Origin: an uncultured Candidatus Saccharibacteria bacterium
GTDB lineage: Bacteria > Patescibacteriota > Minisyncoccia > UBA6257 > GWB1-50-10
Length of the DNA stretch: 64,000 bases
NCBI GenBank assembly: GCA_964466475.1
Contig: CAYXNB010000001.1
Location: 44,635 to 108,634 of the forward strand
Direction: 5' to 3'
Shown: piece by piece, positions 19,467 to 59,133 of the stretch
Numbering within the stretch: position 1 is the stretch's first letter
How the letters are laid out: every line of letters begins with the position of its first letter
Translations under genes and position numbers: made by a program
Notes under the pieces: generated by a model
What the model was told of the DNA's origin: nothing
What the model saw: only the letters and a program-made list of their open reading frames with translations
Database searches by the model: none

Positions 19467-19470
19467 GTGG

Positions 19471-20505: not shown

Positions 20506-20522
20506 GTTGTTTTCTTTATTAC

Positions 20523-21800: not shown

Positions 21801-21836
21801 GATTGCCTTACAATATCAAAGACCTTGCTCTTTTGT

Positions 21837-22862: not shown

Positions 22863-22901
22863 ACCTTGTCCTACCCTCTTTTTTCAATTACGCTTTTATA
22901 T

Positions 22902-23498: not shown

Positions 23499-23523
23499 TG
23501 GGTTATTCTGTATCATTCCATCC

Positions 23524-24627: not shown

Positions 24628-24638
24628 ATATCTTCTTT

Positions 24639-26821: not shown

Positions 26822-26931
26822 CCCTCACATACCATGCGCAAATACCGCGTTAGTCGCACAGGTATTGCGCATACGTTTTGCACTTGTTCGACCATTTGCG
26901 CCATTGCCCAAGCGCATGTTATGTGAGGGAT

Positions 26932-31779: not shown

Positions 31780-31785
31780 GAGATG

Positions 31786-32601: not shown

Positions 32602-32661
32602 TTTTTCATACTATGCTTTTGCATCCATACTCACAAGATGTTTCTCTCTCATTCCGTGAAA

Positions 32662-34376: not shown

Positions 34377-35371
34377 ACTCCTTTCATAAGGCGGACCCTC
34401 GCCTTTTCGCTTTCCATTTCACGGAGCCGGCGCCGCTCTTCCTCGGGAAGCCCCTGCCATGACCACCCCCTCCGCGCGATCTCTTCCATAATGTAGAGCC
34501 AGGCAACCAAAGTTTCTTCTTTTGCGAGAGATTCCGCCTCCCCCCCACGGTAATATATCTCCCCGTTTTCTTCCACCGCCATATCGCCGCAAAACACTTC
34601 CTGATCCGGAAAAAGGACCGCTTTTTGAAATTTCTTCATGTATTCCGGATTTTTTCGTGCCATCTCCCGAATATATTCCGTGCCGCTTTTCCACCCGCCT
34701 TCCGGCGCCTCTGCCATCCGGCGGACCACCCTCACCTCCGGATACCCGATCTCTCCGCCCTCGCGGAGCGCCTCATGCAGAGCGTCATGAAGACCCAGGG
34801 CGCGAGATGCGCTTTCTGCCGTTGTAATTACTCCGTGATTTTCCAGTATCCATACGCCGATATTTTCTCTTTGCCTTTTCTTTTTCTCTTCCCGTATCGC
34901 TTCCGCGAGCGGAATTCCTGGCGTACAGTACGGAATCCATGCCCAGGGCGCGCCGATCTTTTTTCCCGCGTGTTTTATCGCATCCCTTCCCTCTTTCGCG
35001 CAGGCAAAGACGTTTCCATAGACAGAATGTGTGTGGATCACGAAATTATCGAGAAGGGCATGAAACCCGGTTTCTATGGAGGGCCGAAGCGACTTTCCTC
35101 CGGAGTCCACGATCAGTTTTCCGAACGCCTCCTCTTCTCTCATTTCCTGCCACAGAGTTCCCTCGTAATAGGCGCGCGACTCTTTTTCCCGAAGCATCAC
35201 GATACCGACATTTTCTTGCACGTCTTCCAAACGATATCCCGATGCCTTGATCGCCATTTTTCCCTCTCCCTTTACGGAAATGTTCCCTCCCCCGCCCTGC
35301 ACAAAATCGGGACGCCCCCCCAGGACGCGCGCGATCCGCTCGATCTCTTTTGTGCCTTCCTTTATATCCAT
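34373..35371 (-). CDS. Class II aldolase/adducin-domain protein (fuculose-phosphate aldolase / ribulose-5-P 4-epimerase fold) with C-terminal extension
   Basis: GGGGNISVK N-terminal motif and RPSIETGFHALLDNFVIHTHSVYGNVFAC (metal-binding His cluster); start at MDIKEGTKEI. Confidence 0.6.
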   Translation of the reverse strand: MDIKEGTKEIERIARVLGGRPDFVQGGGGNISVKGEGKMAIKASGYRLEDVQENVGIVMLREKESRAYYEGTLWQEMREEEAFGKLIVDSGGKSLRPSIETGFHALLDNFVIHTHSVYGNVFACAKEGRDAIKHAGKKIGAPWAWIPYCTPGIPLAEAIREEKKKRQRENIGVWILENHGVITTAESASRALGLHDALHEALREGGEIGYPEVRVVRRMAEAPEGGWKSGTEYIREMARKNPEYMKKFQKAVLFPDQEVFCGDMAVEENGEIYYRGGEAESLAKEETLVAWLYIMEEIARRGWSWQGLPEEERRRLREMESEKARVRLMKGV

Positions 35372-37482: not shown

Positions 37483-38162
37483 TGCGTTTCTTCCATTACC
37501 ACGGAGGGGATTCCGGCTAGTTCCGCGCCTTTCGCGTCCTTTGTTTCCGCGTCTCCTATCATGATCACGTCTTCGGCGCGCATGCCCAACTTGCGAAGCG
37601 CGAGGGCGAATATCGGCCTGTCCGGCTTTTCCGCTCCCGCCTCTTCGGAAGACGCCATCGCGCGCAGAAGTCCGTCCAGGCCCAGGCGCTGTATTTTTTT
37701 CATCTGAATACGCGCGGTCATGTCCGTTACGATAACTACGGGCTTTCCGGCTTTTTTACACCACAAAAGAAATTCTTGCGCGCCCTTTCTTGCCCGCATG
37801 GCGCTCAAAAAATTCTTCCAATACGCTTCTTCCATTGCGAGAACTCTCCCCGTCCGGAGCGCGCCTTCTTCCTTTTCCACGTACCGCTGAAAGTATAATA
37901 CCCTTGAGTGGCACGCGGCCTGCGCCGGAATATGTTTTTTCACCTCGGCCCGCGCCTCCCGGTACGCCTCTTCAAATTTTTGGAAGGATATGTTTTTTCC
38001 TTTTCGCGCCTCTTTCCATGCCGCGCGGAGTGCTTTTTTGTGGCACCTCTCGTAGGAGTAGAGCGTGCCGTCCAGATCAAGGAGCACCCCCTTCGCCCCT
38101 TCCACGAGGCGCCTTACCTCCCTGAACGACGAGGCGCGGGTCTGCCGCATATTATGTTTCAT
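37479..38162 (-). CDS. HAD-superfamily hydrolase
   Basis: Motif I VLLDLDGTL, motif IV IMIGDAETKD; start at MKHNMRQ with ATGA overlap; track N-terminal extension discarded. Confidence 0.65.
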   Translation of the reverse strand: MKHNMRQTRASSFREVRRLVEGAKGVLLDLDGTLYSYERCHKKALRAAWKEARKGKNISFQKFEEAYREARAEVKKHIPAQAACHSRVLYFQRYVEKEEGALRTGRVLAMEEAYWKNFLSAMRARKGAQEFLLWCKKAGKPVVIVTDMTARIQMKKIQRLGLDGLLRAMASSEEAGAEKPDRPIFALALRKLGMRAEDVIMIGDAETKDAKGAELAGIPSVVMEETQ

Positions 38163-38758
38163 ATTTCTTTTTCCCATTCGGCAACCCACTCCTTTCCCGC
38201 CATGACCGCGTCCAATTCCACGCCCAGGTCCCGAAGGGCTTTTCTGTACGGAACAATGTCTTTCCCCCGTCCCCATCGGTCCGGGGACACAAGACAGATT
38301 TTCCATTCCGGCAATATACCTACCACTTCTTCATTCAACGGCAGAGACGAGATGGTGTCAATCCAGAGCCAGTCCGCCCTTCCCTTGTATCGCTCCGCGA
38401 GATGGTAACACTCTTCTTCGCTCAGCCGCACCGCGATCTCGCGCGCACCCTCGCGAGTCGCGCGATACAAGTACGGAAACTCCACGTCAAGCAAAAAATA
38501 ATTATTTGGCGGAATGCCATACTTCTCGGCGAGATTCCTGCACCCCTCTTCGATTCCTGCTTCTTTTATATTGAATATGATGAAGGCGTGTTTATATTCG
38601 CGAAGATAATCATCAAGGTACTCTCCGCGCCCGGGATCGTGGTTTAGATAGAGGCGATCGCTCCCCGGATCGTGACGCACGTCAACCTCTACCCCGTATC
38701 GCGCGGGGATTCTTTGCAGTTCATTCCTGGTATTTACCCGATGGATGATAATAATCAT
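38159..38758 (-). CDS. Small glycerophosphodiester-phosphodiesterase-like (GP-PDE/PLC-like TIM barrel) protein
   Basis: IIIIHRVNTRNELQ...VEVDVRHDPGSDRLYLNHD follows the GP-PDE H-R...E...E-x-D-x-R...HD catalytic pattern; only 199 aa. Confidence 0.4.
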   Translation of the reverse strand: MIIIIHRVNTRNELQRIPARYGVEVDVRHDPGSDRLYLNHDPGRGEYLDDYLREYKHAFIIFNIKEAGIEEGCRNLAEKYGIPPNNYFLLDVEFPYLYRATREGAREIAVRLSEEECYHLAERYKGRADWLWIDTISSLPLNEEVVGILPEWKICLVSPDRWGRGKDIVPYRKALRDLGVELDAVMAGKEWVAEWEKEI

Positions 38759-38763
38759 TTCTC

Positions 38764-39549
38764 CTACTCCTCAATTCTTTCACGGAACGATTCTTTTAGC
38801 ATTCGCACGAGCGACCCCTCCTCGATTCCCAGAAGTTCCTCAAATTCTTTTTGTTCCATTTCCGTTGCCTTAAGCTGCACCTCGTCCAAGGGCTTCCCCT
38901 CGAATTTTTCTCTAAACAAATCCATAAACTCCCTGTTGTACCCGCGCTTCCCGGCCTCCAGAATTCTTGCCCGAAAGTCGCTTATTTCCGACCCTCCGAC
39001 CACGTGGTCAGCAAGATGAATTATTTTTTCCCCGATCGGGCGATTTTTCAAGTACTCCTCGCTCGCCTCTTCCGGCGTATTCGCGGAGGTAAGGCGTACC
39101 ACGTCTTCGGGCACCCCGAGCCGGCGCAGTGCCTCCTCGTCTTTTTCTCCGGACTCCTTATATCCGCGCCGCACTCCCCATCCGCGCATCAGAAGCACCT
39201 CCCATTTCTTCATCCAGTCGTGCAATATCGCGGCGCTCGTTATTTTTTGTCTTTCTTCTTCCGGTAACGCAAGGCGTTCTCCCAAAATATCCGCCACGAC
39301 TCCCACCATAAGCGTGTGCTCTCCGGCCACTTTCCAGTCGTCATCCGTTATCATCCAGGGCACCGCGTCCTCTTTGCTTTTCTTTACCCTTCTTCCCCCG
39401 CGAACTATCGTGCGCTCTCCCCATATTCCGCCTTTTTCCAGAATATTTTTTTCCCGCGGATGACTCTCCGCGAAACGTTCCAAATACGCCCTTCTTTTTT
39501 CCGGGTCTATATGTATCTCTTCGGGTTGTGTTTGTTTTTCAAAATTCAT
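38764..39549 (-). CDS. HD-domain phosphohydrolase-like protein
   Basis: AAILHDWMK and IHLADHVVG consistent with H...HD...H...D metal-dependent phosphohydrolase. Confidence 0.4.
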   Translation of the reverse strand: MNFEKQTQPEEIHIDPEKRRAYLERFAESHPREKNILEKGGIWGERTIVRGGRRVKKSKEDAVPWMITDDDWKVAGEHTLMVGVVADILGERLALPEEERQKITSAAILHDWMKKWEVLLMRGWGVRRGYKESGEKDEEALRRLGVPEDVVRLTSANTPEEASEEYLKNRPIGEKIIHLADHVVGGSEISDFRARILEAGKRGYNREFMDLFREKFEGKPLDEVQLKATEMEQKEFEELLGIEEGSLVRMLKESFRERIEE

Positions 39550-40349
39550 TGTTTTTTCTTTTTATCTTCCCCGCGAAGACGGCTGTTTACCTCATGCGCA
39601 ACCTCGATGAGGCGCAGCCGCATGTTTAATTCTTTTGCCCTTTGCGCGATTGCCTGCGTGTCTTTTGGAAAACAAAATCCGCCATAACCGCGATAACCAT
39701 CATCGTGCACGTCCCAGTGGCTGCTCCCTATTCTCGGGTCATGCACCAGACATTTTTTTACTGCGTCATAATTCGCATCGCCCAGCGCTTCGCAAAGATC
39801 ATATATTTCGTTCGCGAAAACGACTCGCGTCGCGAGATACGAATTTATCCAATATTTCAAAACCTCGGCTTCGGTTGAGGTTGTGATTTCCGAAAAATCC
39901 GCTTTTGGCAAAAGTTCCAAAATTTTCGGCGCGACTTTTTTTCCTTTTTCGCTTGCGTATCCGACCACCTGAATACTGGGATGTAAAAAATCCTCTTTCG
40001 CGGTTTTCGCGCGGAGAAATTCCGGATTGAAGAGAATGACCTTTTTCGGGCACATCTCCTGGAATTTTTTGGTGGAACCCGGGACGATGGTGGATTTTAT
40101 AACCGCGATTTTTCCGTCCTCGATGTTTGCCAAGGACTCCCTGACCGCGGAGTCGTCATACCCCCTGCCGTCCTCGTGGAACGGAGTGGGGACCGCGATA
40201 AAAATTATGTCCGCCCTGTTTACCTCCTCTACAGAGCCGATTTTTTTGAATTTGTCGTAGGCGAAGACATCCGCCCCATGCGATTCGAACCATTCTTTTA
40301 TAGGAGTGCCCACATATCCCAGGCCGATTATTCCGATTTTTTCTTTCAT
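39546..40349 (-). CDS. Truncated (mini) UDP-glucose/GDP-mannose dehydrogenase family protein lacking the C-terminal UDP-binding domain
   Basis: MKEKIGIIGLGYVG, KSTIVPGST, catalytic GGFCFPKD; ends about 30 aa after the catalytic Cys (267 aa vs about 390-450 normal); ATGA-coupled to UXS gene. Confidence 0.65.
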   Translation of the reverse strand: MKEKIGIIGLGYVGTPIKEWFESHGADVFAYDKFKKIGSVEEVNRADIIFIAVPTPFHEDGRGYDDSAVRESLANIEDGKIAVIKSTIVPGSTKKFQEMCPKKVILFNPEFLRAKTAKEDFLHPSIQVVGYASEKGKKVAPKILELLPKADFSEITTSTEAEVLKYWINSYLATRVVFANEIYDLCEALGDANYDAVKKCLVHDPRIGSSHWDVHDDGYRGYGGFCFPKDTQAIAQRAKELNMRLRLIEVAHEVNSRLRGEDKKKKQ

Positions 40350-41293
40350 GGTACTGCTTTGAAATATTGTATGGTGCGCATAAGACCCTCCTCAAGCAGA
40401 ACTTTCGGTTCCCACTTCAAATGTTTTTTTGCCTCGGTTATGTCCGGACGGCGGCGGCTCGGATCGTTTTCCGGCAGTTTTGTGTGTATGATTTTGCTTT
40501 TACTCCCGGTGAGCTGAATAATAATCTCCGCGAGCCGTTGGATCGTATGCTCTTCGCCCGGATTCCCCAAGTTTATGGGGCCTGTCCCCCCATGCCGCAT
40601 CATGCGGCACATGCCCTCCACCAGATCGTCCACATATTGAAAACTTCTGGTATGCGATCCATTCCCATAGATCGTGATGTTTTCTCCCCGGAGCGCCTGG
40701 TTGACGAAATTTGAGATCACCCTGCCGTCGTCCGGGCACATGCGCGGCCCGTATGTATTAAAAATGCGGATTACTTTTACATCCACGTTCCGCTCGCGGA
40801 AATAGTCAAAGCACAAAGTTTCGGCCGCGCGTTTGCCTTCGTCGTAGCACGCGCGGGGGCCTGTGGGATTCACATTCCCCCAGTAGGTTTCTTTTTGCGG
40901 ATGCTCTTCGGGGTCGCCGTACACCTCGGAAGTCGAGGCCTGGAGAAGTTTTGCCTTCTTTTTTTGCGCGAGGTCAAGAAGATTTTTCGTGCCCAGTACA
41001 TTGGTACACAATGTGAAAACAGGATTTTTTTGATATTGCGGTGGCGAGGCGGGCGAGGCGAGGTTGTAAATCTCGTCTATATTTCCCGTAATCGCGAGGG
41101 GACGAATAATATCATGTTTCAGAAAGCGAAATCGCGGCTCCTTTTTCAGGTGTGCCATATTCTCCTTTCTGCCGGTTACAAAATTGTCCACGCAAAACAC
41201 TTCGTATCCGTCCCGTAGCAGGCGATCGGCGAGGTGCGAACCGATGAATCCCGCTCCGCCCGCTACCAGCGCTTTTTTATACCCCCTTTTCAT
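40346..41293 (-). CDS. UDP-glucuronate decarboxylase (UDP-xylose synthase, UXS/ArnA-decarboxylase family)
   Basis: ALVAGGAGFIGSHL, diagnostic VDNFVTGRKENM, Y-x3-K (YDEGKRAAE), 315 aa. Confidence 0.85.
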   Translation of the reverse strand: MKRGYKKALVAGGAGFIGSHLADRLLRDGYEVFCVDNFVTGRKENMAHLKKEPRFRFLKHDIIRPLAITGNIDEIYNLASPASPPQYQKNPVFTLCTNVLGTKNLLDLAQKKKAKLLQASTSEVYGDPEEHPQKETYWGNVNPTGPRACYDEGKRAAETLCFDYFRERNVDVKVIRIFNTYGPRMCPDDGRVISNFVNQALRGENITIYGNGSHTRSFQYVDDLVEGMCRMMRHGGTGPINLGNPGEEHTIQRLAEIIIQLTGSKSKIIHTKLPENDPSRRRPDITEAKKHLKWEPKVLLEEGLMRTIQYFKAVP

Positions 41294-41897
41294 CGTCGTA
41301 TATTTTCTTTAATTCGATGACCCGCACATCATTCGGCCAATAACGGAGCGTCTTGTCCGAGAATTCCAAAATTTTTTTCCCGTCCTCTTTTACCCTGTAG
41401 AGGTCAAGCATTCCGTAGAGCGCGGGCGGAAGTTTCGGGGCGATATCCAAGACTTTTTTGTAGTACGCTTCCGATTTTTCAAAGTATCCATCTTTTCGGA
41501 ATTGCAGCCACAGGAAATGGTGCAGACGCGCGAGGTTGACTAGGTGCAGAACGTCTTCCTGGTCGGAATACCCTTCGATAAAAGTCACGAGATCCATAGA
41601 TACCTCTTCCGGCTGGATACCTTTCGATACCAGCGTGATAATGTCTCCCTGAATGAACTTTACTATCTCGTCATCGGATATCGGGGCGTTAAAATCCAAG
41701 ACGCGCCTGAAATTCTCTTTAAAGGCGGGTGCGCTCTGCACGCTTCGCGCCCCTTGGAGCGCCTCGATGTATCGCCTCGCCTTTTGGAGCGGCAGGTACG
41801 CCCCGAAGTAGAGTGAGAGGACGCAGAGAATGATCCCGCATGCACCTGCCGTGTATTTAAACGCGTTTTTCATGATGTTCCTTTCCATACGCAACAT
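41277..41897 (-). CDS. Hypothetical membrane-anchored protein
   Basis: Single N-terminal TM (GACGIILCVLSLYFGAY) then soluble domain; no motif. Confidence 0.35.
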   Translation of the reverse strand: MLRMERNIMKNAFKYTAGACGIILCVLSLYFGAYLPLQKARRYIEALQGARSVQSAPAFKENFRRVLDFNAPISDDEIVKFIQGDIITLVSKGIQPEEVSMDLVTFIEGYSDQEDVLHLVNLARLHHFLWLQFRKDGYFEKSEAYYKKVLDIAPKLPPALYGMLDLYRVKEDGKKILEFSDKTLRYWPNDVRVIELKKIYDDEKGV

Positions 41898-43191
41898 ACC
41901 AGCCGAAGGCGAGCATAATGAATATATTGATATAGATCACGAGCACGTCGAAAAGCACCAGCCCCTGAACCAGGTACGCCGCGGGCAGGGCAAAAATCGC
42001 CCCCATAACCCCGGAAGGCAGGTTTAGAAATTTTCGTTTTTTCCACAATCCCCAGTAGAATGCCGCAAACATGGAAACATAACTTACAAGACCGATCACG
42101 CCTCCGGCAACCAGATAATCAAAAAACACGTTGTGCGCCCTGTCAAACCACGCTCCGAATCCTTCTTCCGGTTTAAAATACGCGGGATTGAAGTTCTTTT
42201 GAAACAGGTATCCGAAATTTTCAGGCCCCCAACCCAGTACGGGCCGCTCCTTGAAACTTTCCCATGCAATACCCCACATGATGGTCCGGTGTTCAAAGGT
42301 CTCTGCCGTGAACGAAATGTCAAATATCCTCGATCCCGGTATCCGCCGCACGAACTCGTTTTCCCGAAAAGTCACCAAAAGGACTCCCGTGATCGCAAGT
42401 GCCGCTCCCACACCTATCGCCCACTTTCTCCATGACCTGTTCGATAGCGCCACGTAGGCGAGCATTATAAACGCTCCGGCCCCGAGCCCCAAAAACGCCC
42501 CACGGGTCGCGGCAAGCAAAAATGCTGCTCCAAAGACCGCGAGCATGCACCAGATAACGAGCGCTCCCGGAGATCTCCAAAGATGCCGCCGATACAGGGT
42601 AAAGAGAAGGTAGAATCCGTAAAACGCCGAAAAAATGAGGTACGCTGCCACATAGGCCGGATTCCCAATGGAGCCCTGGAATCGGAAGGCGGGGTCTTCG
42701 AACGTAGGCCCTATGAATCCGTTGTACCCCGCGCCCGCGCCCAGACCATAGAGCAGCATCAGGATCGCGCTCCAAAGCCCCACCCAAAAAAATTTTCTCC
42801 AGTGCTCTTCTTTGGTAAAAAGCGCTATGAGCAGAAAAAAGAAAATCCCCAGATGGATTATCTGGAGCGCCCCTTCGCCCCGCTCGAAATTTGACCAAAA
42901 CGCGACGACGCGGTTTCTCGCGAATGCGGCGGAGAGGGTGAAAAAAAATACGAACGAAGCAACCGCAAGGGTGAGCGGCTTTTTCCATGCTTCCGCGATT
43001 CTTTTTTTATCCTCTTCTTTGTTTTTTTCAAACAGAAGCCCGAGGATGAAAAAAATCAGGGAAATATCCATAATGCCCCTGAACCAAACGTATTTCCCCA
43101 CTATAAAGGGAAAGAGCGTGCTCTTGGTTACGATCGCTATCGTTACCGGCGCAAGGTAAAGAAAGAGGCGGGATATGGAGAAATACGGCAT
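41857..43191 (-). CDS. Wzy_C-family membrane protein (O-antigen ligase / O-oligosaccharyltransferase-like)
   Basis: 12 TM; ATRGAFLGLGAG and periplasmic loop with RAHNVFFDYLVAGGVIG typical of Wzy_C (WaaL/PglL/PilO family). Confidence 0.75.
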   Translation of the reverse strand: MPYFSISRLFLYLAPVTIAIVTKSTLFPFIVGKYVWFRGIMDISLIFFILGLLFEKNKEEDKKRIAEAWKKPLTLAVASFVFFFTLSAAFARNRVVAFWSNFERGEGALQIIHLGIFFFLLIALFTKEEHWRKFFWVGLWSAILMLLYGLGAGAGYNGFIGPTFEDPAFRFQGSIGNPAYVAAYLIFSAFYGFYLLFTLYRRHLWRSPGALVIWCMLAVFGAAFLLAATRGAFLGLGAGAFIMLAYVALSNRSWRKWAIGVGAALAITGVLLVTFRENEFVRRIPGSRIFDISFTAETFEHRTIMWGIAWESFKERPVLGWGPENFGYLFQKNFNPAYFKPEEGFGAWFDRAHNVFFDYLVAGGVIGLVSYVSMFAAFYWGLWKKRKFLNLPSGVMGAIFALPAAYLVQGLVLFDVLVIYINIFIMLAFGWYVAYGKEHHEKRV

Positions 43192-43223
43192 AGCGCCATC
43201 ATATCACAGGTTGCTACGACCTG

Positions 43224-45479
43224 CTACCGCGCGCCCTTTTGGGCCGTCCTGATTTTTTCAATAATTTCCCATTCCCCTTTTTCTGCAAGATCGGCCAGAA
43301 CCTTCATGTCTTCTTCCAGTCCCTCCACCCGCGCCCCCAGGTCGTTCGCTATCAAAACCGCATTTTTTGAATCCCTGGTTTTCAAGGCGTGGCGAAGCGC
43401 CCGCTCCAGATATTCTATTCGCGTAAAAGCGATCCTCCGGTTGATGCCCCGAACAACCAGATCAGTAACCTTGTCGTCCATGCCCCAGGCCGCGTACAAG
43501 AGGGCTATGTTGTGAAAATCCGATCCCAGAAACGTCTTCCATTCCGGATCGAGTTCTTCGGCGCGAGCAAGCTCTTTTTTCGCGTCTTTTTCCTGTTCTT
43601 CGTTCCCTATGGAGAGCATGAGCGCAAGATGATAGTGGGCGCGCGCGACCTCCGGGGAGAGGGCTACGGCTTCCCGCGCTACCCGGACGGATTCCTCCAC
43701 CCTTCCCTGCCCTCCCAGGGCAAAGGCGAGCTGGTAGAGAAGCTCCTGGCGTCTGGGCGCGAGTTCGAGCGCCTGGCGCGAGAGCGCTTCGGTGATCTTG
43801 TAAATTTCCTCGTGCTCGCGCGCCTGGATATGCGCGGCCTCGATGAAGCGTATAAAATTTCGTACGTCCCCCGGCTCCCGTTTTATCACCTCGTCAAGTC
43901 CCTGCACCAAGAAATTCGCCAAAGGCTTGTATGCAGGAGCCTCGAAAATTTCCGGCTGGGCCTTTTGATATATTTCTATCGTATGCGCCCGCAGGGATTT
44001 TTGTATAAAGTTATACGGTTGGTACGCTTTTTCGAGGCGACCCATAACTTCGTCCAGATTCCCCTCATTCCTTGCTCCCTCAAAGTTTCTTGCCTGGACG
44101 TAGGGCACGGCGTTATATATTACGAAAAGATACGCCGCCACTCCCGCCCCGAGAAGCGCCCCCGACCCCTTTGCCGCCGATATCTTTTTTTCCTCCTTCC
44201 CTTTCTCGGCCCGCGTGATGAAAACCAGATACCCCAGGAGCGCGAAAAGGGTGAGATAGGACAAAAACTGGTCAAACAGCACCAGGTTTTGCGTTATGTA
44301 TCCCGCGAGAAAAATCGAGAATACCTTCTTTTCATAGGTGCGTTTCCGCAAGCACCAGAGCGCCGATCCGAGAAGAAGAACGTAGGCAATAAGCCCCGCG
44401 ACACCCTGCTGAACAAGAAGGTCAAATATTTTATTGTGCGCCCGATCCAGCCACGTTTCGCCGTAGAGCGCCATGTCCGGATCATAGTGCCGAAGATAGG
44501 CGATCATGTAGTTTTCAATCCCCCAACCGAATACCGGCCGCTCCAAAAACGCCTTCCAGGAAAGTTTCCATGTCATAAGACGCATCTCTGTCGAGGAGTC
44601 CGCCCTGTCCTGAAGCGCGGTTTTCGCGAGTCGATCAAGTCCCGGCACTTTTTGCCACATTTCGTTTTCTTTTGTGTTCCAAAAAACAGCCGCAAAAACT
44701 ACGGACGCACCGAGAAGCATTAGGGATATTTTTTTCGACAGGCCCCGCCCCCGAACCGCGTTCCATATAAGAAAGACGGCTAGCGCCGCTCCCATGCCCA
44801 GAATCGCTCCGCGCGTACCCGAAAGAAATATCCCGACGGCTCCCAAAGGAAACGCTGCGAGAGACGCCCACCACCAGAATGTCTTTTGTTTCACCTCTTT
44901 CAAAAGTATGCCTGCGAACGCCATCAAAAACATAAGATGTGCGGCGAAAAACGCCGCGTTTCCTATAAAAGAATCTATTCGCTGTTTTGGTCCGAGGGCG
45001 AACGGAAAACGCTCCACTCCGGCGAATTGTAAAAATCCGTACAGCATAAGGACCAACCCTCCTCCGATCCATATTTTCAGATATGTTATCCAGTCCTCTT
45101 TTTTAAAGACCAGGGCAGTAAGCGCGAAAAGGGCCCCGTAGTGCAGCATGCCGACCAGCCCTTCGGCGCGCTCAATATTCCCCCACAGAGCGCGATAGGT
45201 GTCCACAGCAAACACCGCACTTATGGCAAGCGTTAAAAAAAATATCCCCGCGGATATTACGATCGGATGAAAGAAAAATTCCTTTTTGCCCTCTTCCTCC
45301 GTCTTTTCCCCGCGCGCCCACTTCCAAAAAATCTCCGCGGCATAGGCCACGACCGCGAGTTCCACCAATGCCCGAAAAAATACCATCTTGCCAAAAAGCG
45401 CGGGGGCTATCGCTTCTTTAGTAATCACAAGCGGGGTGAGCGCTGTGGCAAGGAGGAGGTATTTCGTTATCCGCATCAT
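43224..45479 (-). CDS. Wzy_C-family membrane domain fused to C-terminal TPR repeats
   Basis: GTRGAILGMGAA Wzy_C motif; C-terminal about 300 aa TPR-like (ALELAPRRQELLYQLAFALGG...); start moved to MMRITKYLL because a terminator hairpin overlaps the track start. Confidence 0.7.
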   Translation of the reverse strand: MMRITKYLLLATALTPLVITKEAIAPALFGKMVFFRALVELAVVAYAAEIFWKWARGEKTEEEGKKEFFFHPIVISAGIFFLTLAISAVFAVDTYRALWGNIERAEGLVGMLHYGALFALTALVFKKEDWITYLKIWIGGGLVLMLYGFLQFAGVERFPFALGPKQRIDSFIGNAAFFAAHLMFLMAFAGILLKEVKQKTFWWWASLAAFPLGAVGIFLSGTRGAILGMGAALAVFLIWNAVRGRGLSKKISLMLLGASVVFAAVFWNTKENEMWQKVPGLDRLAKTALQDRADSSTEMRLMTWKLSWKAFLERPVFGWGIENYMIAYLRHYDPDMALYGETWLDRAHNKIFDLLVQQGVAGLIAYVLLLGSALWCLRKRTYEKKVFSIFLAGYITQNLVLFDQFLSYLTLFALLGYLVFITRAEKGKEEKKISAAKGSGALLGAGVAAYLFVIYNAVPYVQARNFEGARNEGNLDEVMGRLEKAYQPYNFIQKSLRAHTIEIYQKAQPEIFEAPAYKPLANFLVQGLDEVIKREPGDVRNFIRFIEAAHIQAREHEEIYKITEALSRQALELAPRRQELLYQLAFALGGQGRVEESVRVAREAVALSPEVARAHYHLALMLSIGNEEQEKDAKKELARAEELDPEWKTFLGSDFHNIALLYAAWGMDDKVTDLVVRGINRRIAFTRIEYLERALRHALKTRDSKNAVLIANDLGARVEGLEEDMKVLADLAEKGEWEIIEKIRTAQKGAR

Positions 45480-45520
45480 ATGCCCTATTCTGCCAGGTTT
45501 TTTGTTTATCCTCAAGAAAT

Positions 45521-45548
45521 CCAAAAACCGCCCGAAGGCGGTTTTTGG
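45521..45548. terminator. Bidirectional rho-independent terminator hairpin (CCAAAAACCGCC-CGAA-GGCGGTTTTTGG)
   Basis: Perfect 12-bp stem with A/T-run flanks immediately downstream of the surface-protein gene stop (45588). Confidence 0.6.
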
Positions 45549-45587
45549 TTACGTTCGAGAACGCTTGTCGTTCTACGCCACCATTCC

Positions 45588-48500
45588 TTACTTGGAAACG
45601 GTCTTGTAGGCCGACGGCAGATCCTTCACGTAGTATCCGTTGAACCAGTCCGCGGTCGTTTCCGAATGCGCTGTATCGGTAACCGAATGATCGGACCAGA
45701 TGAATGACGGCTGTCCGTCGTGTGTCGAGGTTTCCGCCCCGTTCACTGTGGTTGCCGTTATTACTGCGGATTCCGTCAGGAAGAGACGGACTGAAGCGTT
45801 CGGGCTCGCACCCGCCGCGGTTGAAAGATCCGCGAACGGCAGCGCGACTTCATACGTCTTCGAAGATCCCGCCGCGATTTCTTCCGCGGTCGTAAGAATG
45901 ATCGTTACGTATCCGGAGTTTCCTCCAGTGATGGTCGCGTTTTGCGCCGTTGTGGACGCTACCGCGTTGCCGCTGATCGCCGAAGCGATATCCAGGTTCG
46001 AGCTTACGGACGGAGCGATTCTCTTGATCGTAATCGTTCCGGTCGTGCCCGGTACCGAGCTCAATGACGACATTGTGGCGTCTGTCATTGCCACGTTCAA
46101 CTGGATCTTCTTCCAGGAAATCTGCTCTGCCGAATCCGCGTCGATCTTGAAGGCGAATACCGGTTGAGCGTTTCCTGACCGGAGATTGTACGACTGAGTC
46201 GGCAAGCTGATTGTCGGCTTGGTCTTGTACACAACCTTCCGGTTGCCGGTCGCGGCCGTGATGGACGTATCCTTCGCGGTCGCGCCCTGCGAATCGAATC
46301 CTGCGGCCATGACGCTTACGAACACGGTTTCTCCGGAGTCAGCCCCTCCCGAATTGGTGTTCAAGGCACCTTTTACGGTCAAGGTCTTTGATCCGTTCTT
46401 CGGAACCTTCCAGCCGAGGTCGTCAACGAAGACCACGCCGGAATTGTCTCCGGAACCGGTTACCGGATATCCGTCCGCGGTGCCGATCTGCGTCGCCCCG
46501 TCATAGAGCTTCACTCTCGGCACTTCGTCCGCCGCGCCGGTTGATGTCGCTGTCGCGGAAGAGGACGTTACGACAAGAAGCTGCATGTCGTTTACCGTCA
46601 TTTCTTCGTTGGTCGCGCTAAACCGGAATTTGGCGAGCGTCTGTTCGCGTCCCGCGATCACGATGCCGGCTTCCGAGTCCTCGTCATCCGGAGCTTTCGC
46701 CACGGTGATGCTGCCCACGTCGGCAACCGTTACCACTACGCTTGCCGTGGTGGTGTTGATGCCGGAGGGGCCGCTGATCGTGGCGGAGTTTCCGTCAACG
46801 TCGGTCGCGGTAATGTAGGTTGAGTTGGAGTTTACCAATCCGAACCTCCATGTGTCGCCGTTTGTCGCGTTCGCGTCAATGTTACCCTTCAGGGTCAGCA
46901 CCTTGGTTTCACCCTTTTTCAAGGTGATGTTCAGGTTGCTGAAGGTTGTCGAAAGATCCGTGTCAAGCGACTTGGTGTCGGAAACACGGGTTTCTCCGTC
47001 ATAGAGGGCCAGGGACTGCACCTCTCCCGTTCCCAGAGTTCCGCTGCCCGCGGTCGAAGTCGTCTTGATGGACGTAATCTTCACGTCTCCGCCGGTTGCC
47101 CGGAAGGAGAAGCCCACGAGCGGAACTTTCTGAGTTCCCCGAACGTATGTCTGCGATGTCGGAGTCGAGGCAAGCTGCACGGTTACGGTCGGTACCCGCG
47201 TGTCCTGCACGTTTCCGGCGATCGTCGAGTTCGGGACGATGTCCGAGGTCGCGACGTTGGTGTTGTTGTCCAGGTTCTTAATATCTCCCGACACAAAGGC
47301 AAGGAGAGAAACCAGGATGTCGTCACCATCGTCGTTGTCCGCGTCCACGTCAACCGTTACCTTGAACCGGCGCGACTCTCCGGCAGCCATGTTGATGACG
47401 TCGGTGAATGTCACGTCAGTCGAGATTGTTACGTCCGTTGCGGAGGTTACAACCGCGTTCTTTTCCACATCCCAGACCTTCATATCCATAAACCCTTCTC
47501 CGGATTCAAGTCCGGTTGTGGTCGCGTGGAAGCGAAGGTTCTTGATCTCGACTTCGTTCTGGGACGCGAGTGTGAAGTCAAACACGGTCTGATCCTGTCC
47601 GCGGAGCGAGACGTCTCCCGCGATCGGGCCGTTGAAGGTGATGGTCACCTGTCCGCCCGAGATCGTAAGAGTGTCCGCATCCCCGTCGGCATCCAATCCG
47701 CCAATGGTCGGCAACACGGGATACCCGTACTGCTTTCCGATCGCGCGGATGTCGGACGAGGTGTCGAAGCGAATGATGATAGTATCGTTCGCCCGCGCCT
47801 TTCCGCTGATATCACCGTAGATCTTAAAGGTCCTTTGCTGACCCTTTTCGATCGTGTACGGCTTTGAAAGGACAAAAGTGATAAGATCTTTTGTTCCGAT
47901 CGAATCCGCGGTTCCGATGGTTTCGTCGTTTACCTTCAGTTTGAAGTTCGAAAGATGTTCATTCTGAATGGTTCCGGTTTCAACCACCGCGATTTTTTCA
48001 ATGATTACGTCTTCCGTTGAGGAGGCCGTAAAAATGATTTCCTGCAACAGGGCTTCTTTTTGCCCGATACGGGGGTTTGCCGGAGCAGCTCCCGAGGTCG
48101 GATCAAGTCCTCCCACGGTCTGTCCCGCTATTTCCATGAGGTTCCCCGTAACGCCGGTTATGGTCGGCGCCGCCGGTGTTCCTTCCCCGGAAACCAACTT
48201 CATGTAATTCCTGTTTCCGGTCGTTGATCCTGCCGCGATATCCGCGATCAGGGTCAAGGTCTTCACCTCGTTGTTCAAGGTGAGTTTCAAACCGGGGAAG
48301 CTTACCTCGTGCGTGGTGGAGTTCAGCGTCTTACCGCTGGTAAGCCGCGTGTCTCCCTGCATCAGGTTAAAGCTTCCGGAAACAAAGTCGGTTGTCGCAC
48401 CGATACCTTCTCTCTTGAAGACAAGGGAGTCCAAGGTTCCGGTGCCTGCGACGTTAAACTTCAAGAATTTAACGCCGCTCGCGCCTTTCGGCACCGCTCC

Positions 48501-49082
48501 CGCGCCCGCGTTATCCGCGGCGAGGGTGACCGCGATTCCCGATGAAGGAATCACGACGTTTGCCGGAGGCGGAGTTGTGGTTCCGGGAGTTGTCGTCCCC
48601 GGGGTCGTCGGCACTACCACCGCGCTCGCGATGGCATTGCGCGTCAAAGGACCGAAGTAACCGACGGAAGGAGTTACCCCCTTTGCCGCCTGCCACTTGG
48701 CCAAGGCCGCGCGAGTTGCCGGACCGAAGTAGGACGATTCGTTGCCCGGAGATCCCGCACCCGAGGCGGAAACCTGATACCCGTTCGCGTTTAAGGTCTG
48801 CTGAAGGCACTTTACGTCATCTCCTGTTGAACCCAAGGTGAGGTCTCGGGTGAACGAGCAAGAAACAGCGACAGCGCCGCCAGTGGTCCCTCCGGTCTGG
48901 GCCGCAAGTTGTCCCTGGAGCTGCGAAATCAATGCTAATAGTTGGTTGATCTGTGCCTGGAGTTGCTCGACCGTAAGGGTCTGGGCTCCTGCCACAGGCA
49001 CGATTGCAGCCGCGCCCGAGAGCCAGATGGCGGTAGATACCGCAACGCCCACAGACGCAGCCTTTTTCATGAATGTACTCAT
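45588..49082 (-). CDS. Giant repetitive cell-surface protein: signal/TM anchor, coiled-coil, peptidoglycan-binding domain, then about 950 aa of Thr/Ser/Gly-rich beta-repeat modules
   Basis: N-terminus MKKAASVGVAVSTAIWLSGAAAIVPVAGA; PG_binding_1-like GSTGDDVKCLQQTLNANGYQVSASGAGSPGNESSYFGPATRAALAKWQ; repeated modules of pattern K-T-L-T-[LV]-KG-x-[IL]-[DN]; 1164 aa. Confidence 0.7.
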   Translation of the reverse strand: MSTFMKKAASVGVAVSTAIWLSGAAAIVPVAGAQTLTVEQLQAQINQLLALISQLQGQLAAQTGGTTGGAVAVSCSFTRDLTLGSTGDDVKCLQQTLNANGYQVSASGAGSPGNESSYFGPATRAALAKWQAAKGVTPSVGYFGPLTRNAIASAVVVPTTPGTTTPGTTTPPPANVVIPSSGIAVTLAADNAGAGAVPKGASGVKFLKFNVAGTGTLDSLVFKREGIGATTDFVSGSFNLMQGDTRLTSGKTLNSTTHEVSFPGLKLTLNNEVKTLTLIADIAAGSTTGNRNYMKLVSGEGTPAAPTITGVTGNLMEIAGQTVGGLDPTSGAAPANPRIGQKEALLQEIIFTASSTEDVIIEKIAVVETGTIQNEHLSNFKLKVNDETIGTADSIGTKDLITFVLSKPYTIEKGQQRTFKIYGDISGKARANDTIIIRFDTSSDIRAIGKQYGYPVLPTIGGLDADGDADTLTISGGQVTITFNGPIAGDVSLRGQDQTVFDFTLASQNEVEIKNLRFHATTTGLESGEGFMDMKVWDVEKNAVVTSATDVTISTDVTFTDVINMAAGESRRFKVTVDVDADNDDGDDILVSLLAFVSGDIKNLDNNTNVATSDIVPNSTIAGNVQDTRVPTVTVQLASTPTSQTYVRGTQKVPLVGFSFRATGGDVKITSIKTTSTAGSGTLGTGEVQSLALYDGETRVSDTKSLDTDLSTTFSNLNITLKKGETKVLTLKGNIDANATNGDTWRFGLVNSNSTYITATDVDGNSATISGPSGINTTTASVVVTVADVGSITVAKAPDDEDSEAGIVIAGREQTLAKFRFSATNEEMTVNDMQLLVVTSSSATATSTGAADEVPRVKLYDGATQIGTADGYPVTGSGDNSGVVFVDDLGWKVPKNGSKTLTVKGALNTNSGGADSGETVFVSVMAAGFDSQGATAKDTSITAATGNRKVVYKTKPTISLPTQSYNLRSGNAQPVFAFKIDADSAEQISWKKIQLNVAMTDATMSSLSSVPGTTGTITIKRIAPSVSSNLDIASAISGNAVASTTAQNATITGGNSGYVTIILTTAEEIAAGSSKTYEVALPFADLSTAAGASPNASVRLFLTESAVITATTVNGAETSTHDGQPSFIWSDHSVTDTAHSETTADWFNGYYVKDLPSAYKTVSK

Positions 49083-49449
49083 TTTGCTGTAATTTCTGTA
49101 ATTATCGACTTAATGTTTGTTTTTGCTCGACCTTTATGTTTTTCTGCTCCCCTTTTGCCCGCCTTCGACAAGGCGAGAAAAGGGGGGTTGGTAATAAAGT
49201 AATCCTTCGATTTCTCTCAGGATGTTTTAGCCCTTTGTTTTGTAAGGTATGTAGAGCTAAAACAAAAAACTCGCTTTGGAGCGAGGTTTGCACAAATACC
49301 ACGAGTCCCCCGGACTGGTGTTATTTGTGCTTGGACAAGGCCTCACTCCTGTCTTTTGCACAATTTTGCTATTATATCCTACTTTTCAAGTATTTTCAAC
49401 CCTTTTCACTAATTATAACGATGTAACGCGGAGGGGCGTTACAGGATGT

Positions 49450-50028
49450 TTACAGCCCCCAGGAGGTTGTTCCAAGCACGAAAAGGAGAATTACGCTAAA
49501 TACTAGGCACTCTTTGAGGATGCCCTCTCGGCCCAAAGCCCCGCTTCTCGCCTTTTCCATAACCCTCCGTAAAACCAGATAAATGAGAGCCAGGATTGCC
49601 GAGAAACTCACCGGATGCAGGGGGAGAAAGTTCAAAATCCAGGCGATTTGTGCACTCAAAAATGCGGCGCCTCCGGCCAGGCACATATTCCGCTTTTTTC
49701 CGGTTTCCGCGATTTCCGCCTCTTTATAGAGCAGGGTGAAGACGATACCGACCAGAAGCAGGGTGAAGAGCCAGAAATTTTGCGGAGCGCGGAGCGAGGT
49801 GCCGAAAAACGCGGCGAGAAAGACCAGTCCCGTCATTGCCGGTTCCCACTTTTTTCCCTTTTTTATGGTCCAGAACGCGGCGACGCCCGACGCCGCCATA
49901 CCCAAAACACCTCCTTGTACAAGGCAAAATATGCCGGCTCCGGCAAGGAGCGCGTACTTAGACGCCGATCTCCACCCGATTTGCCTTAGCGTCGAACGCG
50001 ATAGTAATTTTTTGGCCTTCTGTAACAT
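49450..50028 (-). CDS. Hypothetical small membrane protein (start uncertain; overlaps clpB 3' end)
   Basis: 4-5 hydrophobic segments; no motif. Confidence 0.3.
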   Translation of the reverse strand: MLQKAKKLLSRSTLRQIGWRSASKYALLAGAGIFCLVQGGVLGMAASGVAAFWTIKKGKKWEPAMTGLVFLAAFFGTSLRAPQNFWLFTLLLVGIVFTLLYKEAEIAETGKKRNMCLAGGAAFLSAQIAWILNFLPLHPVSFSAILALIYLVLRRVMEKARSGALGREGILKECLVFSVILLFVLGTTSWGL

Positions 50029-52597
50029 CTCCTCGTATCAGCTTATCCGCGAGCGCATCCACGATGATTTTTTGGATAAGCCGCTTTATGGGTCTCGCGC
50101 CATATTCGGAGTCAAACCCTTTTTTTGCAAGGTGTGCCTCCACTTCTTTTTGAATATCCAGATCTATTCCCTTTTCTTTCAGCCGCTCCTTTACCTCGTC
50201 AAGCTCCGCGCGGACGATCTTCCGTATGTGCACTGGAGAAAGAGGGTGGAAAATGATGATCTCATCCAATCGGTTCAAAAATTCTGGCTTAAAGGTTTCC
50301 TTGAGGTCTTCTTCCACCTTTGTCCGAAACTCTTCTTCTTTGCGCCTTGCCTCTTTTATTTCTTCCGCGTCACCCCGAAATCCCAGGGACGAAAATTCCT
50401 GAAAATATTCGCTTCCCACGTTCGAGGTTAAGATAATTACGGTGTTTTTGAAGTTTACCAGCTTTCCCTTGGAATCCGTAAGCCGTCCGTTGTCCAGAAT
50501 CTGGAGCAGGATGTTGAATACTTCGGGATGGGCCTTTTCTATCTCGTCAAATAAAATGAGCGAATAGGGCCTGTGTCGCACCACTTCGGTCAACTGCCCG
50601 CCCTCTTCGTGGCCCACATATCCGGGCGGCGACCCCACAAGCCGCGCGACCGCGTGCCGCTCCATGTATTCGGACATATCGATCCGCACCAGCGCTTTTT
50701 CGTCGTTAAACATAAACTCCGCGAGAGTACGGGCAAGATGTGTCTTTCCCACGCCCGTGGGGCCGAGAAACATAAAGGAGGCGAGGGGCTTGCCCGCGTC
50801 CGCGAGTCCTGCGCGGGACCGCTTTAAGGCGCGGGAGACAGCCTCGATCGCTTCTTTCTGCCCAACCACGCTTTTTTCCAGTTCTTTTTCTATTCGCGAG
50901 AGTTTCTGCATCTCGGATTCAAGCATCTTTACCATAGGGATGCCCGTCCAGCGCGCCACAACCGAGGCAATATCTTCCTCATCCACGAATTCTTTGATGA
51001 ATTTATCGCCCCTGGTTTCGCCGATGTATTTTTTCTCGAACGCTTTTACTTCTTTTTCCGCGCGCGGCAATTCGCCGTAGAGAATCTGCGCCACTCGCTC
51101 CAGATTTCCTTCGCGCTCCGCTATTTCGGATTCACGCTTCAGATCTTCCACTTTTTTACGCAAATTATGCAGATTTTCCACGGATATTTTTTCCGCGTGC
51201 CACTTGGCCGAGAGTTCGTCGTTTTCTTTTTTGAAACGGACGAGTTCGCGCTCGACCTCCTCCAGCCGTTCTTTCGCTTTTTTTGACTCGTCGCTCGTGA
51301 GCGCGGATTTTTCTATTTCCAGTTTCGTCATCTGCCTTCTTGTCTTGTCAATCTGGGCGGGCATGCTGTCAGACTCAAGCGAGCGCGCGGCAGCGGCCTC
51401 GTCAATCAAATCCACAGCCTTGTCGGGCAGAAAGCGGTCGCTGATGTACTTTGCCGAAAGGTTTACCGCGGCCAAAATCGCGTTGTCTGAAATCTTCAGG
51501 CCATGGTGCATCTCGTATTTTTCTTTCAGTCCGCGCAAAATGGCAATGGAGTCCTCGATGGTCGGCTCCTCAACGTAAACAGGTTGGAATCTGCGCTCAA
51601 GCGCGGCGTCTTTTTCTATATATTTCTGATATTCTTTAAGCGTTGTTGCTCCTATTGCCCGGAGTTCTCCGCGGGCAAGCGCCGGTTTTAACATATTCGA
51701 GGCGTCTACCGCGCCCTCCGCCGCTCCCGCGCCGACGATCATGTGGATTTCGTCAATGAATAGAATGATCTTGCCCGCGGAATTCTGCACTTCTTTCATG
51801 AATGCCTTGAAGCGGTCTTCAAATTCCCCCCGAAACTTGGTGCCCGCAATAAGCGATCCGATGTCGAGCATCACCACCTCCCTGCCCTTCAGGGATTCGG
51901 GAACTTCTTCCGCGATGATCCTCTGGGCAAGCCCCTCCACGATCGCGGTCTTCCCTACGCCGGGCTCGCCTATCAGGACCGGATTGTTTTTGGTGCGGCG
52001 GGACAATATCTGCATGAGGCGGCGGAGCTCTTCTTCGCGGCCTATTACCGGATCCAGTTTGCCCTCGCGCGCGCGGTTTGTAAGGTTCACCGCGTATTTT
52101 TCAATCGCCTGAAATTTGGACTCCGGCATTTCGTCCGTTACTCTGTTGGCGCCCCGCAGACCTGCCAGCGTGCGCACAAGCACGTCTTTTCTCGCTCCGG
52201 CGCGCATCAAGATTTCGCCCGCGCGCGAGGGTACTTCAACAAGAGAGAGCAGCAGGTGTTCGCAGGAGATGTATTCATCGCGCCCCCGCATGGCTATTTC
52301 CGCGGCCTTATCCAAAATCCGCATAAGTTCGTGGGAAAGATAGAGCTGGCCCACAGATCCGGAGCCGGTGAATATCTTGGGGAGTTTATCAAGTTCCGTT
52401 GCCAAGTCGCCCTCCACCGCCTCGATCGCCACGTTCGAGCGCACGAGCATGGGACGGACCAGGGTGTCGGCCTCATCCAAAAGAGCCCTCAAAAGATGGA
52501 GGGCGCCGAGCTCCCCGTGATTCATGCGGGCAACCATTTCCTGCCCGTTCTGGAGTGCTTCCTGCGCTTTGATTGTAAAGCGGTGAAAATTAGGCAT
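49958..52597 (-). CDS. clpB: ATP-dependent chaperone ClpB
   Basis: 879 aa; N-domain, two AAA+ modules with Walker A (GEPGVGKTA and GPTGVGKTH), long coiled-coil M-domain. Confidence 0.95.
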
Positions 52598-52602: not shown

Positions 52603-52839
52603 TTACGCGATTGCGAGCATTTTTGACTTTCTCGTGAATTCTCTTATATTTTTTTCTTCTTTTTTGAAGTCGTCAAAACTAAATTCGTAAAAACTTACGC
52701 GCACCATTTCTCCTTTTTTGTCATAGTCAATCACCGCGTTTCCCTGAATGTCCGAATCCGCGCTTTTTTCGTTTTTCACAATTATCGAAAGGACTTTATT
52801 TTTTTTGTCATATTCAATTTTTGGTTTTTTTTGCTTCAT
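52603..52839 (-). CDS. DUF2283-family small protein (putative antitoxin of DUF4258/DUF2283 pair)
   Basis: 78 aa; IEYDKKNKVLSIIV...NAVIDYDKKGEMVRV follows DUF2283 Y-D...D-x-L-x-I...iDyDe-x-G pattern; ATGA-coupled to upstream DUF4258 gene. Confidence 0.5.
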   Translation of the reverse strand: MKQKKPKIEYDKKNKVLSIIVKNEKSADSDIQGNAVIDYDKKGEMVRVSFYEFSFDDFKKEEKNIREFTRKSKMLAIA

Positions 52840-59126: not shown

Positions 59127-59133
59127 GCACTTG

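Follow-up and report, generated by a model that had tools for sequence, protein, structure and literature searches.

Here, we describe a locus in a stretch of 64,000 nucleotides (nt) from a bacterium of the candidate phyla radiation (CPR), deposited as an uncultured Candidatus Saccharibacteria bacterium (assembly GCA_964466475.1, contig CAYXNB010000001.1, positions 44,635 to 108,634). This whole stretch is called the window, and coordinates refer to it unless a related locus is named. The gene of a large secreted protein with a peptidoglycan-binding domain is followed here by the gene of a membrane protein that combines a Wzy_C domain with a tail of tetratricopeptide repeats (TPR), and most of the related genomes keep this neighbourhood. 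We regard the Wzy_C-TPR protein as a candidate for an O-oligosaccharyltransferase dedicated to the neighbouring surface protein. Among the readings considered, this one is the best supported after testing, and we give it about an even chance of being correct.

The minus strand carries every gene of interest at the locus. Along the direction of transcription, the order is clpB, a DUF5656-like gene, the surface gene, a terminator, the Wzy_C-TPR gene, a second Wzy_C gene, the gene of a protein of 206 amino acids (aa) and the glycan genes. An original prediction, made from the sequence, had named the Wzy_C pair, the TPR tail, the large secreted protein, the terminator and the structured leader as features of the locus, and all of them were recovered in place. 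Its gene order has to be reversed: because all genes are located on the minus strand, the surface gene lies upstream and not downstream of the Wzy_C genes, and the latter form the 5' end of the glycan array instead of terminating it.

The surface protein and its Wzy_C neighbours

The surface gene (45588..49082, minus strand) encodes 1164 aa, or 1160 aa when read from the second ATG at 49070. A signal-peptide-like segment at the N-terminus of the product is followed by a conserved coiled coil (aa 34-59) and a PG_binding_1 domain (aa 86-151; Pfam, E 5.6e-9). Next comes a disordered, Thr/Pro-rich linker of about aa 152-170, VVVPTTPGTTTPGTTTPPP, with a predicted local distance difference test (pLDDT) score below 50 in the AlphaFold2 model. 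The model as a whole has a mean pLDDT of 84.6 and is all-beta from residue 179 onwards, over some 980 residues that are organised into about six diverged beta-sandwich modules. Profile comparison identifies six module-sized segments as diverged copies of one unit (D1 and D4, E 5e-14; D4 and D5, E 2e-11), the pairs D2-D4 and D3-D4 being weaker with E values of about 1e-6 to 1e-7. A C-terminal WSD...DW motif is conserved in the family. Ser and Thr together account for 22.4% of the residues, compared with 7-11% in ten other proteins of the window, the mature protein has an isoelectric point of 4.7, and its only two Cys residues are both N-terminal. Such an acidic, Cys-poor and Ser/Thr-rich composition is typical of surface-layer (S-layer) proteins. 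The PG_binding_1 match, the Ser/Thr content and the all-beta model thus bear out the secreted, peptidoglycan-binding protein of Thr/Ser-rich beta repeats that had been predicted. An alpha-2-macroglobulin-like function was also considered and rejected: the Foldseek matches to macroglobulin, complement and integrin proteins reflect generic beta-sandwich arrays, and a thioester is impossible because of the number and N-terminal position of the Cys residues.

Homologues of the surface protein form more than 120 full-length clusters of 1100-1226 aa with 31-65% identity. All named ones stem from metagenome-assembled genomes (MAGs) of Patescibacteria/Parcubacteria, namely Jorgensen-, Lipton-, Wolfe-, Harrison- and Falkowbacteria. 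Judged by sequence, this is a full-length conserved surface-protein family in Paceibacterota. The position of the linker is kept in 48 homologues, where it is mostly Thr/Pro/Gly-rich (TTPTTPTTP, TTTGGTTTGG or poly-Thr); candidate glycosylation sites are found in this linker as well as in the Ser/Thr-rich modules. CPR cells reportedly carry an S-layer. The protein described here is probably the main cell-surface protein of its host.

The Wzy_C-TPR gene (43224..45479, minus strand) encodes 751 aa and matches Wzy_C and TPR families in Pfam. Its open reading frame (ORF) can be extended to a TTG codon (43224..45524, 766 aa); in this longer frame, Wzy_C (PF04932) matches at aa 225-382 with an E value of 1.5e-22, and TPR families match at aa 583-637. 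As the TTG start would fall within the hairpin of the upstream terminator, it was rejected; the ATG at 45479 is preferred, and the gene caller likewise reports 751 aa. The second Wzy_C paralogue (41857..43191, minus strand) has 444 aa and consists of the membrane domain only (PF04932, E 3.1e-18). With 80.4 bits for the 751-aa and 66.4 bits for the 444-aa protein, both exceed the gathering cut-off of 31.7, as expected for the two Wzy_C proteins, one with a TPR tail, that had been predicted.

The structure model of the 751-aa protein (pLDDT 92.9; predicted template modelling score 0.90) comprises 12 transmembrane (TM) helices in a WaaL fold, with the catalytic loop at aa 270-350 between helices 9 and 10. 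Next come a Lys/Arg-rich loop (423-435) and a long 13th helix (435-470), and a TPR tail of some 290 aa completes the protein. Because of the positive-inside rule and the position of the 13th TM helix behind the Lys/Arg-rich loop, the tail is predicted to be extracytoplasmic, on the same side as the catalytic loop. A profile search of the PDB with the membrane domain returned WaaL as the sole match (E 1.5e-10); phmmer searches against the PDB with the isolated membrane domain and with the 444-aa paralogue gave no useful match. No variation occurs at R223, R300 and H348 in sets of 46 and 11 sequences, and these residues align to R191, R265 and H313 of WaaL. This Arg/Arg/His triad corresponds to the one that E. 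coli WaaL needs for activity (R215/R288/H338) and that PglL retains (R224/R298/H349) (PMC3643930).

The 444-aa paralogue keeps the invariant residues and shares 29% identity with the membrane domain of the 751-aa protein over 436 aa. The 206-aa protein (41277..41897, minus strand) combines a single N-terminal TM helix with a helical, TPR-like ectodomain; it shares 37% identity (E 7e-36) with residues 460-637 of a fused, 645-aa second Wzy_C protein of the related locus L004. In view of this homology to a fused C-terminal tail, the second enzyme is the same Wzy_C-plus-tail design split into two genes. The split form recurs in about 20 genomes, and the fused form is found in L004, L015 and L043.

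For the conservation of the pair, one genome per species was scanned with 21 closer surface-protein sequences as query. This gave 54 loci, all from Patescibacteria-type MAGs. A hidden Markov model of the Wzy_C-TPR family was run over their six-frame ORFs, and a locus counted as informative if its sequence continued for at least 700 nt past the surface gene (n = 46). A Wzy_C ORF on the same strand starts 1-590 nt downstream of the surface gene in 40 of these 46 species genomes, and two more loci carry one within 7 kb (42/46). Whether the arrangement extends to relatives had been left to a later check by the original prediction; a Wzy_C gene directly after the surface gene turns out to be the rule among them.

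The pair is kept in six loci that have no clpB within 9-10 kb upstream (L018, L022, L027, L031, L053 and L063), and the genes beyond it vary: those of L007 and L008 are of the bacillosamine type and include Bac_transf, L002 has heptose-type genes with GT9, and L006 has asparagine-synthase-like genes. Across lineages with differing glycan gene sets, the Wzy_C-TPR orthologues are 35-45% identical. In L066, the Wzy_C-TPR protein is only 27% identical, and a 1259-aa surface homologue is encoded two genes upstream (hhalign E 7e-77); both partners have thus diverged to about 30% identity in this lineage with the linkage kept. Another distant Wzy_C-TPR relative adjoins pilin-like N_methyl genes.

As separate observations in these loci, the Wzy_C product of a relative (667 aa; L010, 11545-13548) and a GT4 product (L010, 18869 onward) are each reported to contain a PDDEXK_3 nuclease-like domain, and small genes of the 23S_rRNA_IVP family are scattered over related loci (L004, 7212-7532; L010, 13545-13916; L066, 10872-11264). 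Both may represent mobile or selfish insertions in CPR glycan loci.

Expression signals and the leader RNA

The surface gene has its own promoter, leader and terminator and therefore forms its own transcription unit. Its sigma-70-like promoter, TTGAAA-17-TATAAT (49371..49399, minus strand), agrees with the consensus at 11 of 12 positions and is the best site within 41000-50200. Relatives show similar TATAAT boxes 5' of the leader hairpin. The intergenic stretch from the DUF5656-like gene to the surface gene measures 390 nt.

Behind the stop codon of the surface gene, the intrinsic terminator (45521..45548, minus strand) consists of a 12-bp stem, CCAAAAACCGCC/GGCGGTTTTTGG (45548..45521), with the loop TTCG and a T-rich tail, and lies about 40 nt before the start codon of the Wzy_C-TPR gene; the strong terminator of the original prediction is hence confirmed. 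Of 43 distinct related loci, 41 have an equivalent hairpin, with a 10-14 bp stem flanked by an A-run and a T-run, 20-60 nt behind the stop codon of the surface gene. In these relatives, the Wzy_C-TPR gene often begins less than 120 nt after the hairpin. Since its start in the window is only about 40 nt past the terminator, the Wzy_C-TPR gene is presumably expressed at a lower level by read-through, and the recurrent arrangement would imply that read-through or attenuated expression of the enzyme is itself conserved.

The long structured leader (49083..49364, minus strand) is upheld by its folding score and by covariation. Its approximately 290 nt fold at -93.9 kcal/mol, compared with -62.0 +/- 4.9 for shuffled sequences (z -6.55). 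Directly after the -10 box, at 49334-49353, it carries a stem-loop with the invariant loop WGUGAGG and a stem of 6-8 bp that covaries among the relatives (GCTTAG/CTAAGC, GTTCAG/CTGAAC, TTTGG/CCAAA and others). The motif was found in 42 of 58 upstream regions, and the element is located upstream of the surface gene in L002-L065. Over 36 distinct loci, 88.6% of the cells of the stem are paired, compared with 15-55% in slid controls, and the stem shows 54 double changes against 20.6 +/- 4.8 in shuffles, none of the 500 shuffles reaching this number. The 9-mer GWGTGAGGC occurs a single time in the 64-kb window and is nearly confined to the leader site in related loci.

A terminator-like hairpin with a T-run is present within the leader of the window (49264-49285), and related leaders have such a hairpin 60-185 nt downstream of the stem-loop. 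In 27 of 36 loci, the 5' arm of this hairpin complements the loop and closing bases of the stem-loop. The hairpin stem alternates between CTCGC/GCGAG and CTCAC/GTGAG, either form of which can pair with the loop. Further downstream, an exact distal complement, CCUCAC, occurs in 29 of 35 leaders and is absent from the leader of the window itself. The leader matches no Rfam family. The pairing pattern suggests an antiterminator/terminator switch (attenuator) or a long-range clamp that would control the surface gene.

Candidate function and competing explanations

Both enzyme forms of the locus have described counterparts in the S-layer glycosylation (slg) loci known from Gram-positive bacteria. 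There, the O-oligosaccharyltransferase WsfB is a Wzy_C protein with a C-terminal TPR domain, WsaB lacks the TPR and stands beside the 168-aa TPR protein WsaA, and the S-layer genes are monocistronic and adjacent (PMC2943079). WsfB of Paenibacillus alvei is described as the O-oligosaccharyl:protein transferase for SpaA. In terms of described architecture, the fused form of P. alvei (WsfB/SpaA) is mirrored by the 751-aa protein and the split form of Geobacillus stearothermophilus (WsaB plus WsaA/SgsE) by the 444-aa and 206-aa proteins; in both settings, a monocistronic surface gene stands beside a polysaccharide-type cluster in a monoderm. The present locus differs in belonging to another phylum, in an unrelated acceptor family (PG_binding_1 with cohesin/Ig-like modules instead of SLH-type S-layer proteins), in export of the Wzx/Wzy type instead of a Wzm/Wzt ABC transporter, in having two paralogous enzymes, and in a far more strictly conserved adjacency of enzyme and acceptor.

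Read in this way, the locus would be a cell-surface glycoprotein locus of a Paceibacterota bacterium with an slg-like build. The surface gene, as a separate and strongly expressed unit, would give a 116-kDa product that is exported by Sec and held on the peptidoglycan via PG_binding_1, its chain of beta-sandwich modules projecting. The downstream cluster would make an undecaprenyl-pyrophosphate-linked glycan, which Wzx would flip and the Wzy-like enzyme polymerise. The Wzy_C-TPR protein, expressed at a lower level behind the terminator, would then use its WaaL-type Arg/Arg/His site on the outer membrane face to move the glycan en bloc onto hydroxyl residues of the surface protein, which the extracytoplasmic TPR tail would grip. 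The second Wzy_C protein, with its detached tail protein, could be a paralogous enzyme that transfers another glycan or serves another acceptor.

The glycan biosynthesis array (5972..41293, minus strand), delimited by Pfam scans, spans about 35 kb and contains sugar-nucleotide enzymes, GT2 and GT4 transferases and methyltransferases. Flipping and polymerisation are already covered by a separate pair, a Wzx flippase (11004-12473, minus strand; PF01943, E 8e-35) and a Wzy-like polymerase (12445-13716, minus strand; PF01901 with 37.7 bits, TIGR04370 with a weak match). The array further carries two short UDP-glucose/GDP-mannose dehydrogenase-like proteins of 267 and 235 aa (39546-40349 and 8286-8993, minus strand), which have the N-terminal and central domains without the C-terminal UDP-binding domain; a short form of 274 aa is annotated in L002.

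From the PglL/PilO (TfpO) enzymes, the Wzy_C-TPR protein is set apart in several respects. It shares with them the Wzy_C domain, the triad at nearly the same positions (R223/R300/H348 here, R224/R298/H349 in PglL) and a co-oriented neighbour as candidate acceptor, which lies within 590 nt in the 40 of 46 genomes given above; in 21 of 31 cases, pglL or pilO is a co-oriented neighbour of its pilin gene, and the preferred sites of these enzymes are flexible, low-complexity segments of the Ser/Ala/Pro type (PMC3643930). The differences are the missing PF15864 motif (PglL_A), by which PglL is told apart from WaaL, a non-pilin acceptor candidate, the 290-aa TPR tail behind a 13th TM helix and a monoderm host. 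As PF15864 is absent from both Wzy_C proteins, membership in the PglL family, part of the label in the original prediction, was rejected.

The reading as a WaaL in the strict sense is not adopted either. The 751-aa protein is 18% identical to WaaL of Cupriavidus metallidurans (PDB 7TPG/7TPJ), has an extra TM helix and the TPR tail, and scores 15.1 bits with the RfaL equivalog model NF012031, far below the cut-off of 277; the 444-aa protein does not match this model. Profile scans detected no Lpx, Kdo-transferase, heptosyltransferase (GT9) or LCP genes in the 64-kb window, which agrees with the earlier remark that lipopolysaccharide core genes are missing here. The CPR is treated in the literature as belonging to a monoderm clade that also lost SLH/CsaB anchoring (bioRxiv 10.1101/2021.05.31.446380; PMC8871954), and a lipid A-core acceptor is therefore unlikely.

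The claim of an O-oligosaccharyltransferase thus stands in part. It is favoured by the conserved triad, the fold, the TPR tail predicted to lie outside, the adjacency to the surface gene and the correspondence to the slg loci. Its wording as a general glycosylation system is not taken over, as we see no indication of it; the evidence points to a dedicated pair of enzyme and acceptor.

Several points weigh against this reading. Wzy_C domain, fold and triad occur in ligases and protein transferases alike and do not identify the acceptor. PF15864 gave no match at E <= 0.01 for either Wzy_C protein, and neither reaches any of the curated NCBIfam models. Structure searches with the surface protein, including Foldseek, matched generic modules of the Ig, cohesin or Calx-beta-like kind, with no known S-layer protein among the matches. 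Both the glycosylation of this protein and its assembly into a lattice are putative. A few homologues have a linker of poly-Glu or VAPV repeats without Ser or Thr. Four of the 46 genomes, which carry distant homologues, show no neighbouring Wzy_C gene, and Pfam assigns the genes downstream of the surface gene in these exceptions to unrelated functions (IS200 transposase, histidine kinase, sigma-like factor). The terminator found in 41 of 43 loci means that the surface and Wzy_C genes are not simply co-transcribed, and their adjacency may partly be inherited synteny, as the clpB/htrA context is conserved too. An initiating phosphoglycosyltransferase is likewise not apparent: tblastn found no Bac_transf homologue in the 64-kb window, WecA/MraY-type enzymes not being specifically sought; in the relatives L007 and L008, Bac_transf is present beside the pair. 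Finally, the cluster contains a second, Pmt/Gtr-like route.

Among the alternatives, a ligation of the polymer to a non-protein acceptor by the Wzy_C enzymes, such as a membrane glycolipid or a wall polymer, survives best, and we consider it rather unlikely. Adjacency would then mean that polymer and anchored protein share an envelope layer, perhaps as partners. Fold and triad are indeed those of WaaL, a lipid-acceptor ligase, the PglL-specific motif is absent and a terminator separates the genes; moreover, no LCP-type wall ligase is found in the window, which leaves the attachment of any wall- or lipid-linked polymer to some other enzyme. The Wzy_C-type ligase TacL reportedly acts in this way for pneumococcal lipoteichoic acid. 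What speaks for a protein acceptor instead is the large and presumably extracytoplasmic TPR tail, a protein-binding module as on WsfB and WsaA, which matches the TPR structure of OGT. WaaL has 12 TM helices, whereas the model shows 13. Furthermore, a linkage to one protein gene that survives rearrangements and divergence to the 30% level is hard to explain if this protein is not the substrate.

It is less probable still that the surface protein is glycosylated via a Gtr/Pmt-like route and that the Wzy_C proteins serve something else. The glycan array carries a suitable trio at 27978-31779 on the minus strand, assigned by Pfam: a GT2 transferase (27978-28772), a PMT_2 GT-C enzyme of 693 aa (28694-30775) and a GtrA-methyltransferase fusion (30598-31779). 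In such a three-component route, the GT2 enzyme would form a polyprenol-phosphate sugar, GtrA would flip it and the PMT_2 enzyme would add single sugars to Ser/Thr. The trio could thus serve direct protein O-glycosylation or the decoration of a lipid-linked glycan. The latter is its standard use, for example for the branching glucose of the P. alvei S-layer glycan, and the PMT_2 gene lies about 15 kb from the surface gene and is not conserved beside it in the 40 of 46 genomes with an adjacent Wzy_C gene. Thr/Pro-rich linkers, in turn, are typical Pmt substrates in Actinobacteria.

The route gains further weight from L009 (12471-19615) and L011 (11863-13650), which hold the most distant surface homologues. 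Here, the surface gene is followed by a PMT_2 GT-C enzyme and no Wzy_C gene. The further neighbours measure some 600 aa and combine a multi-pass N-terminal half (7-9 predicted TM segments) with a TPR at the C-terminus; one of them has a weak TMTC_DUF1736 match (E 1e-3, below the cut-off). TMTC1-4 and the PMT-family O-mannosyltransferases combine a GT-C membrane domain with a lumenal TPR. They resemble the Wzy_C-TPR protein as multi-pass transferases with a lipid-linked donor and a non-cytoplasmic TPR that engages protein acceptors; they differ in their PMT_2/TMTC membrane fold, which is not of the WaaL type, and in adding single sugars instead of a glycan en bloc. Proteins of this kind take the place of Wzy_C beside the most distant surface homologues, and their sequences are weakly suggestive of a non-orthologous replacement by another TPR-tailed membrane glycosyltransferase. 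The Gtr/Pmt-like and the Wzy_C route are not mutually exclusive.

Gene order inherited without functional coupling in small, slowly rearranging genomes, with the large protein acting as adhesin or fibril, appears improbable to us. The conserved htrA-clpB-DUF5656 context of most loci and the generic adhesin-like beta modules returned by structure searches would fit such a view. It is at odds with the persistence of the pair in the six loci with a different upstream context and in L066 at about 30% identity, and with the free variation of the genes downstream of the pair.

The most doubtful explanation assigns the Wzy_C proteins to the cluster as Wzy-type polymerases of its repeat units or as accessories of polymerisation: some Wzy polymerases do match Wzy_C and the genes abut a Wzx-dependent cluster, but the orthologues stay 35-45% identical across differing glycan sets whereas polymerases are repeat-unit-specific, a separate Wzy-like gene stands beside Wzx, and the best structural match is a ligase.

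Genomic context and biological meaning

Upstream of the surface gene, the DUF5656-like gene (49450..49899, minus strand; weak PF18900 match on the gene call) encodes a small membrane protein and is located between clpB (52597..49958, minus strand), the first gene of the order given above, and the surface gene. It is a conserved neighbour found in many relatives and a candidate member of the system only; clpB and htrA are conserved upstream in most loci as well. Between the gene of an HtrA-like protease and clpB, at about 52603-53084 (minus strand; L001, 108-589), a toxin-antitoxin-like DUF4258/DUF2283 pair of 82 and 78 aa was observed, which is also present in a Jorgensenbacteria relative. Elsewhere in the window, the anticodon loop of a tRNA-Phe(GAA) gene (59133-59459, minus strand) is interrupted by a 254-nt group I intron (Rfam RF00028, 84 bits at 59186-59437), and the intron mode of ARAGORN rebuilds a tRNA of 73 nt.

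A search of the available literature found no description of a Parcubacteria surface-layer protein, its glycosylation machinery or this enzyme pair. The mechanism as such is known already; new are the phylum and the acceptor family. More tentatively, the elements may be viewed as one vertically inherited Paceibacterota unit of a leader RNA switch, the major wall-anchored surface protein and a dedicated TPR-tailed oligosaccharyltransferase, the latter replaced by a TMTC-like GT-C enzyme in some lineages. This unit would define the surface of these ultra-small episymbionts, with variable glycan genes giving lineage-specific sugar coats over a protein scaffold that is conserved. The WGUGAGG loop, pairing alternatively with the terminator arm or the distal CCUCAC, would then represent a new class of cis-regulator. 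We hold this wider picture to be possible, with a lower probability than the pairing of enzyme and acceptor itself.

From the perspective of CPR biology, the Patescibacteria account for a considerable part of bacterial diversity and live attached to other cells. The locus supplies a conserved candidate for a major Paceibacterota surface protein with a wall anchor, together with the likeliest enzyme for its decoration. The conserved leader RNA is an independent lead. If active, a TPR-guided O-oligosaccharyltransferase from a monoderm would be of interest for the production of glycoconjugates, and its parts are small enough for glyco-engineering in E. coli. For the organisms themselves, the variable glycan cluster next to this conserved pair could account for host or phage specificity.

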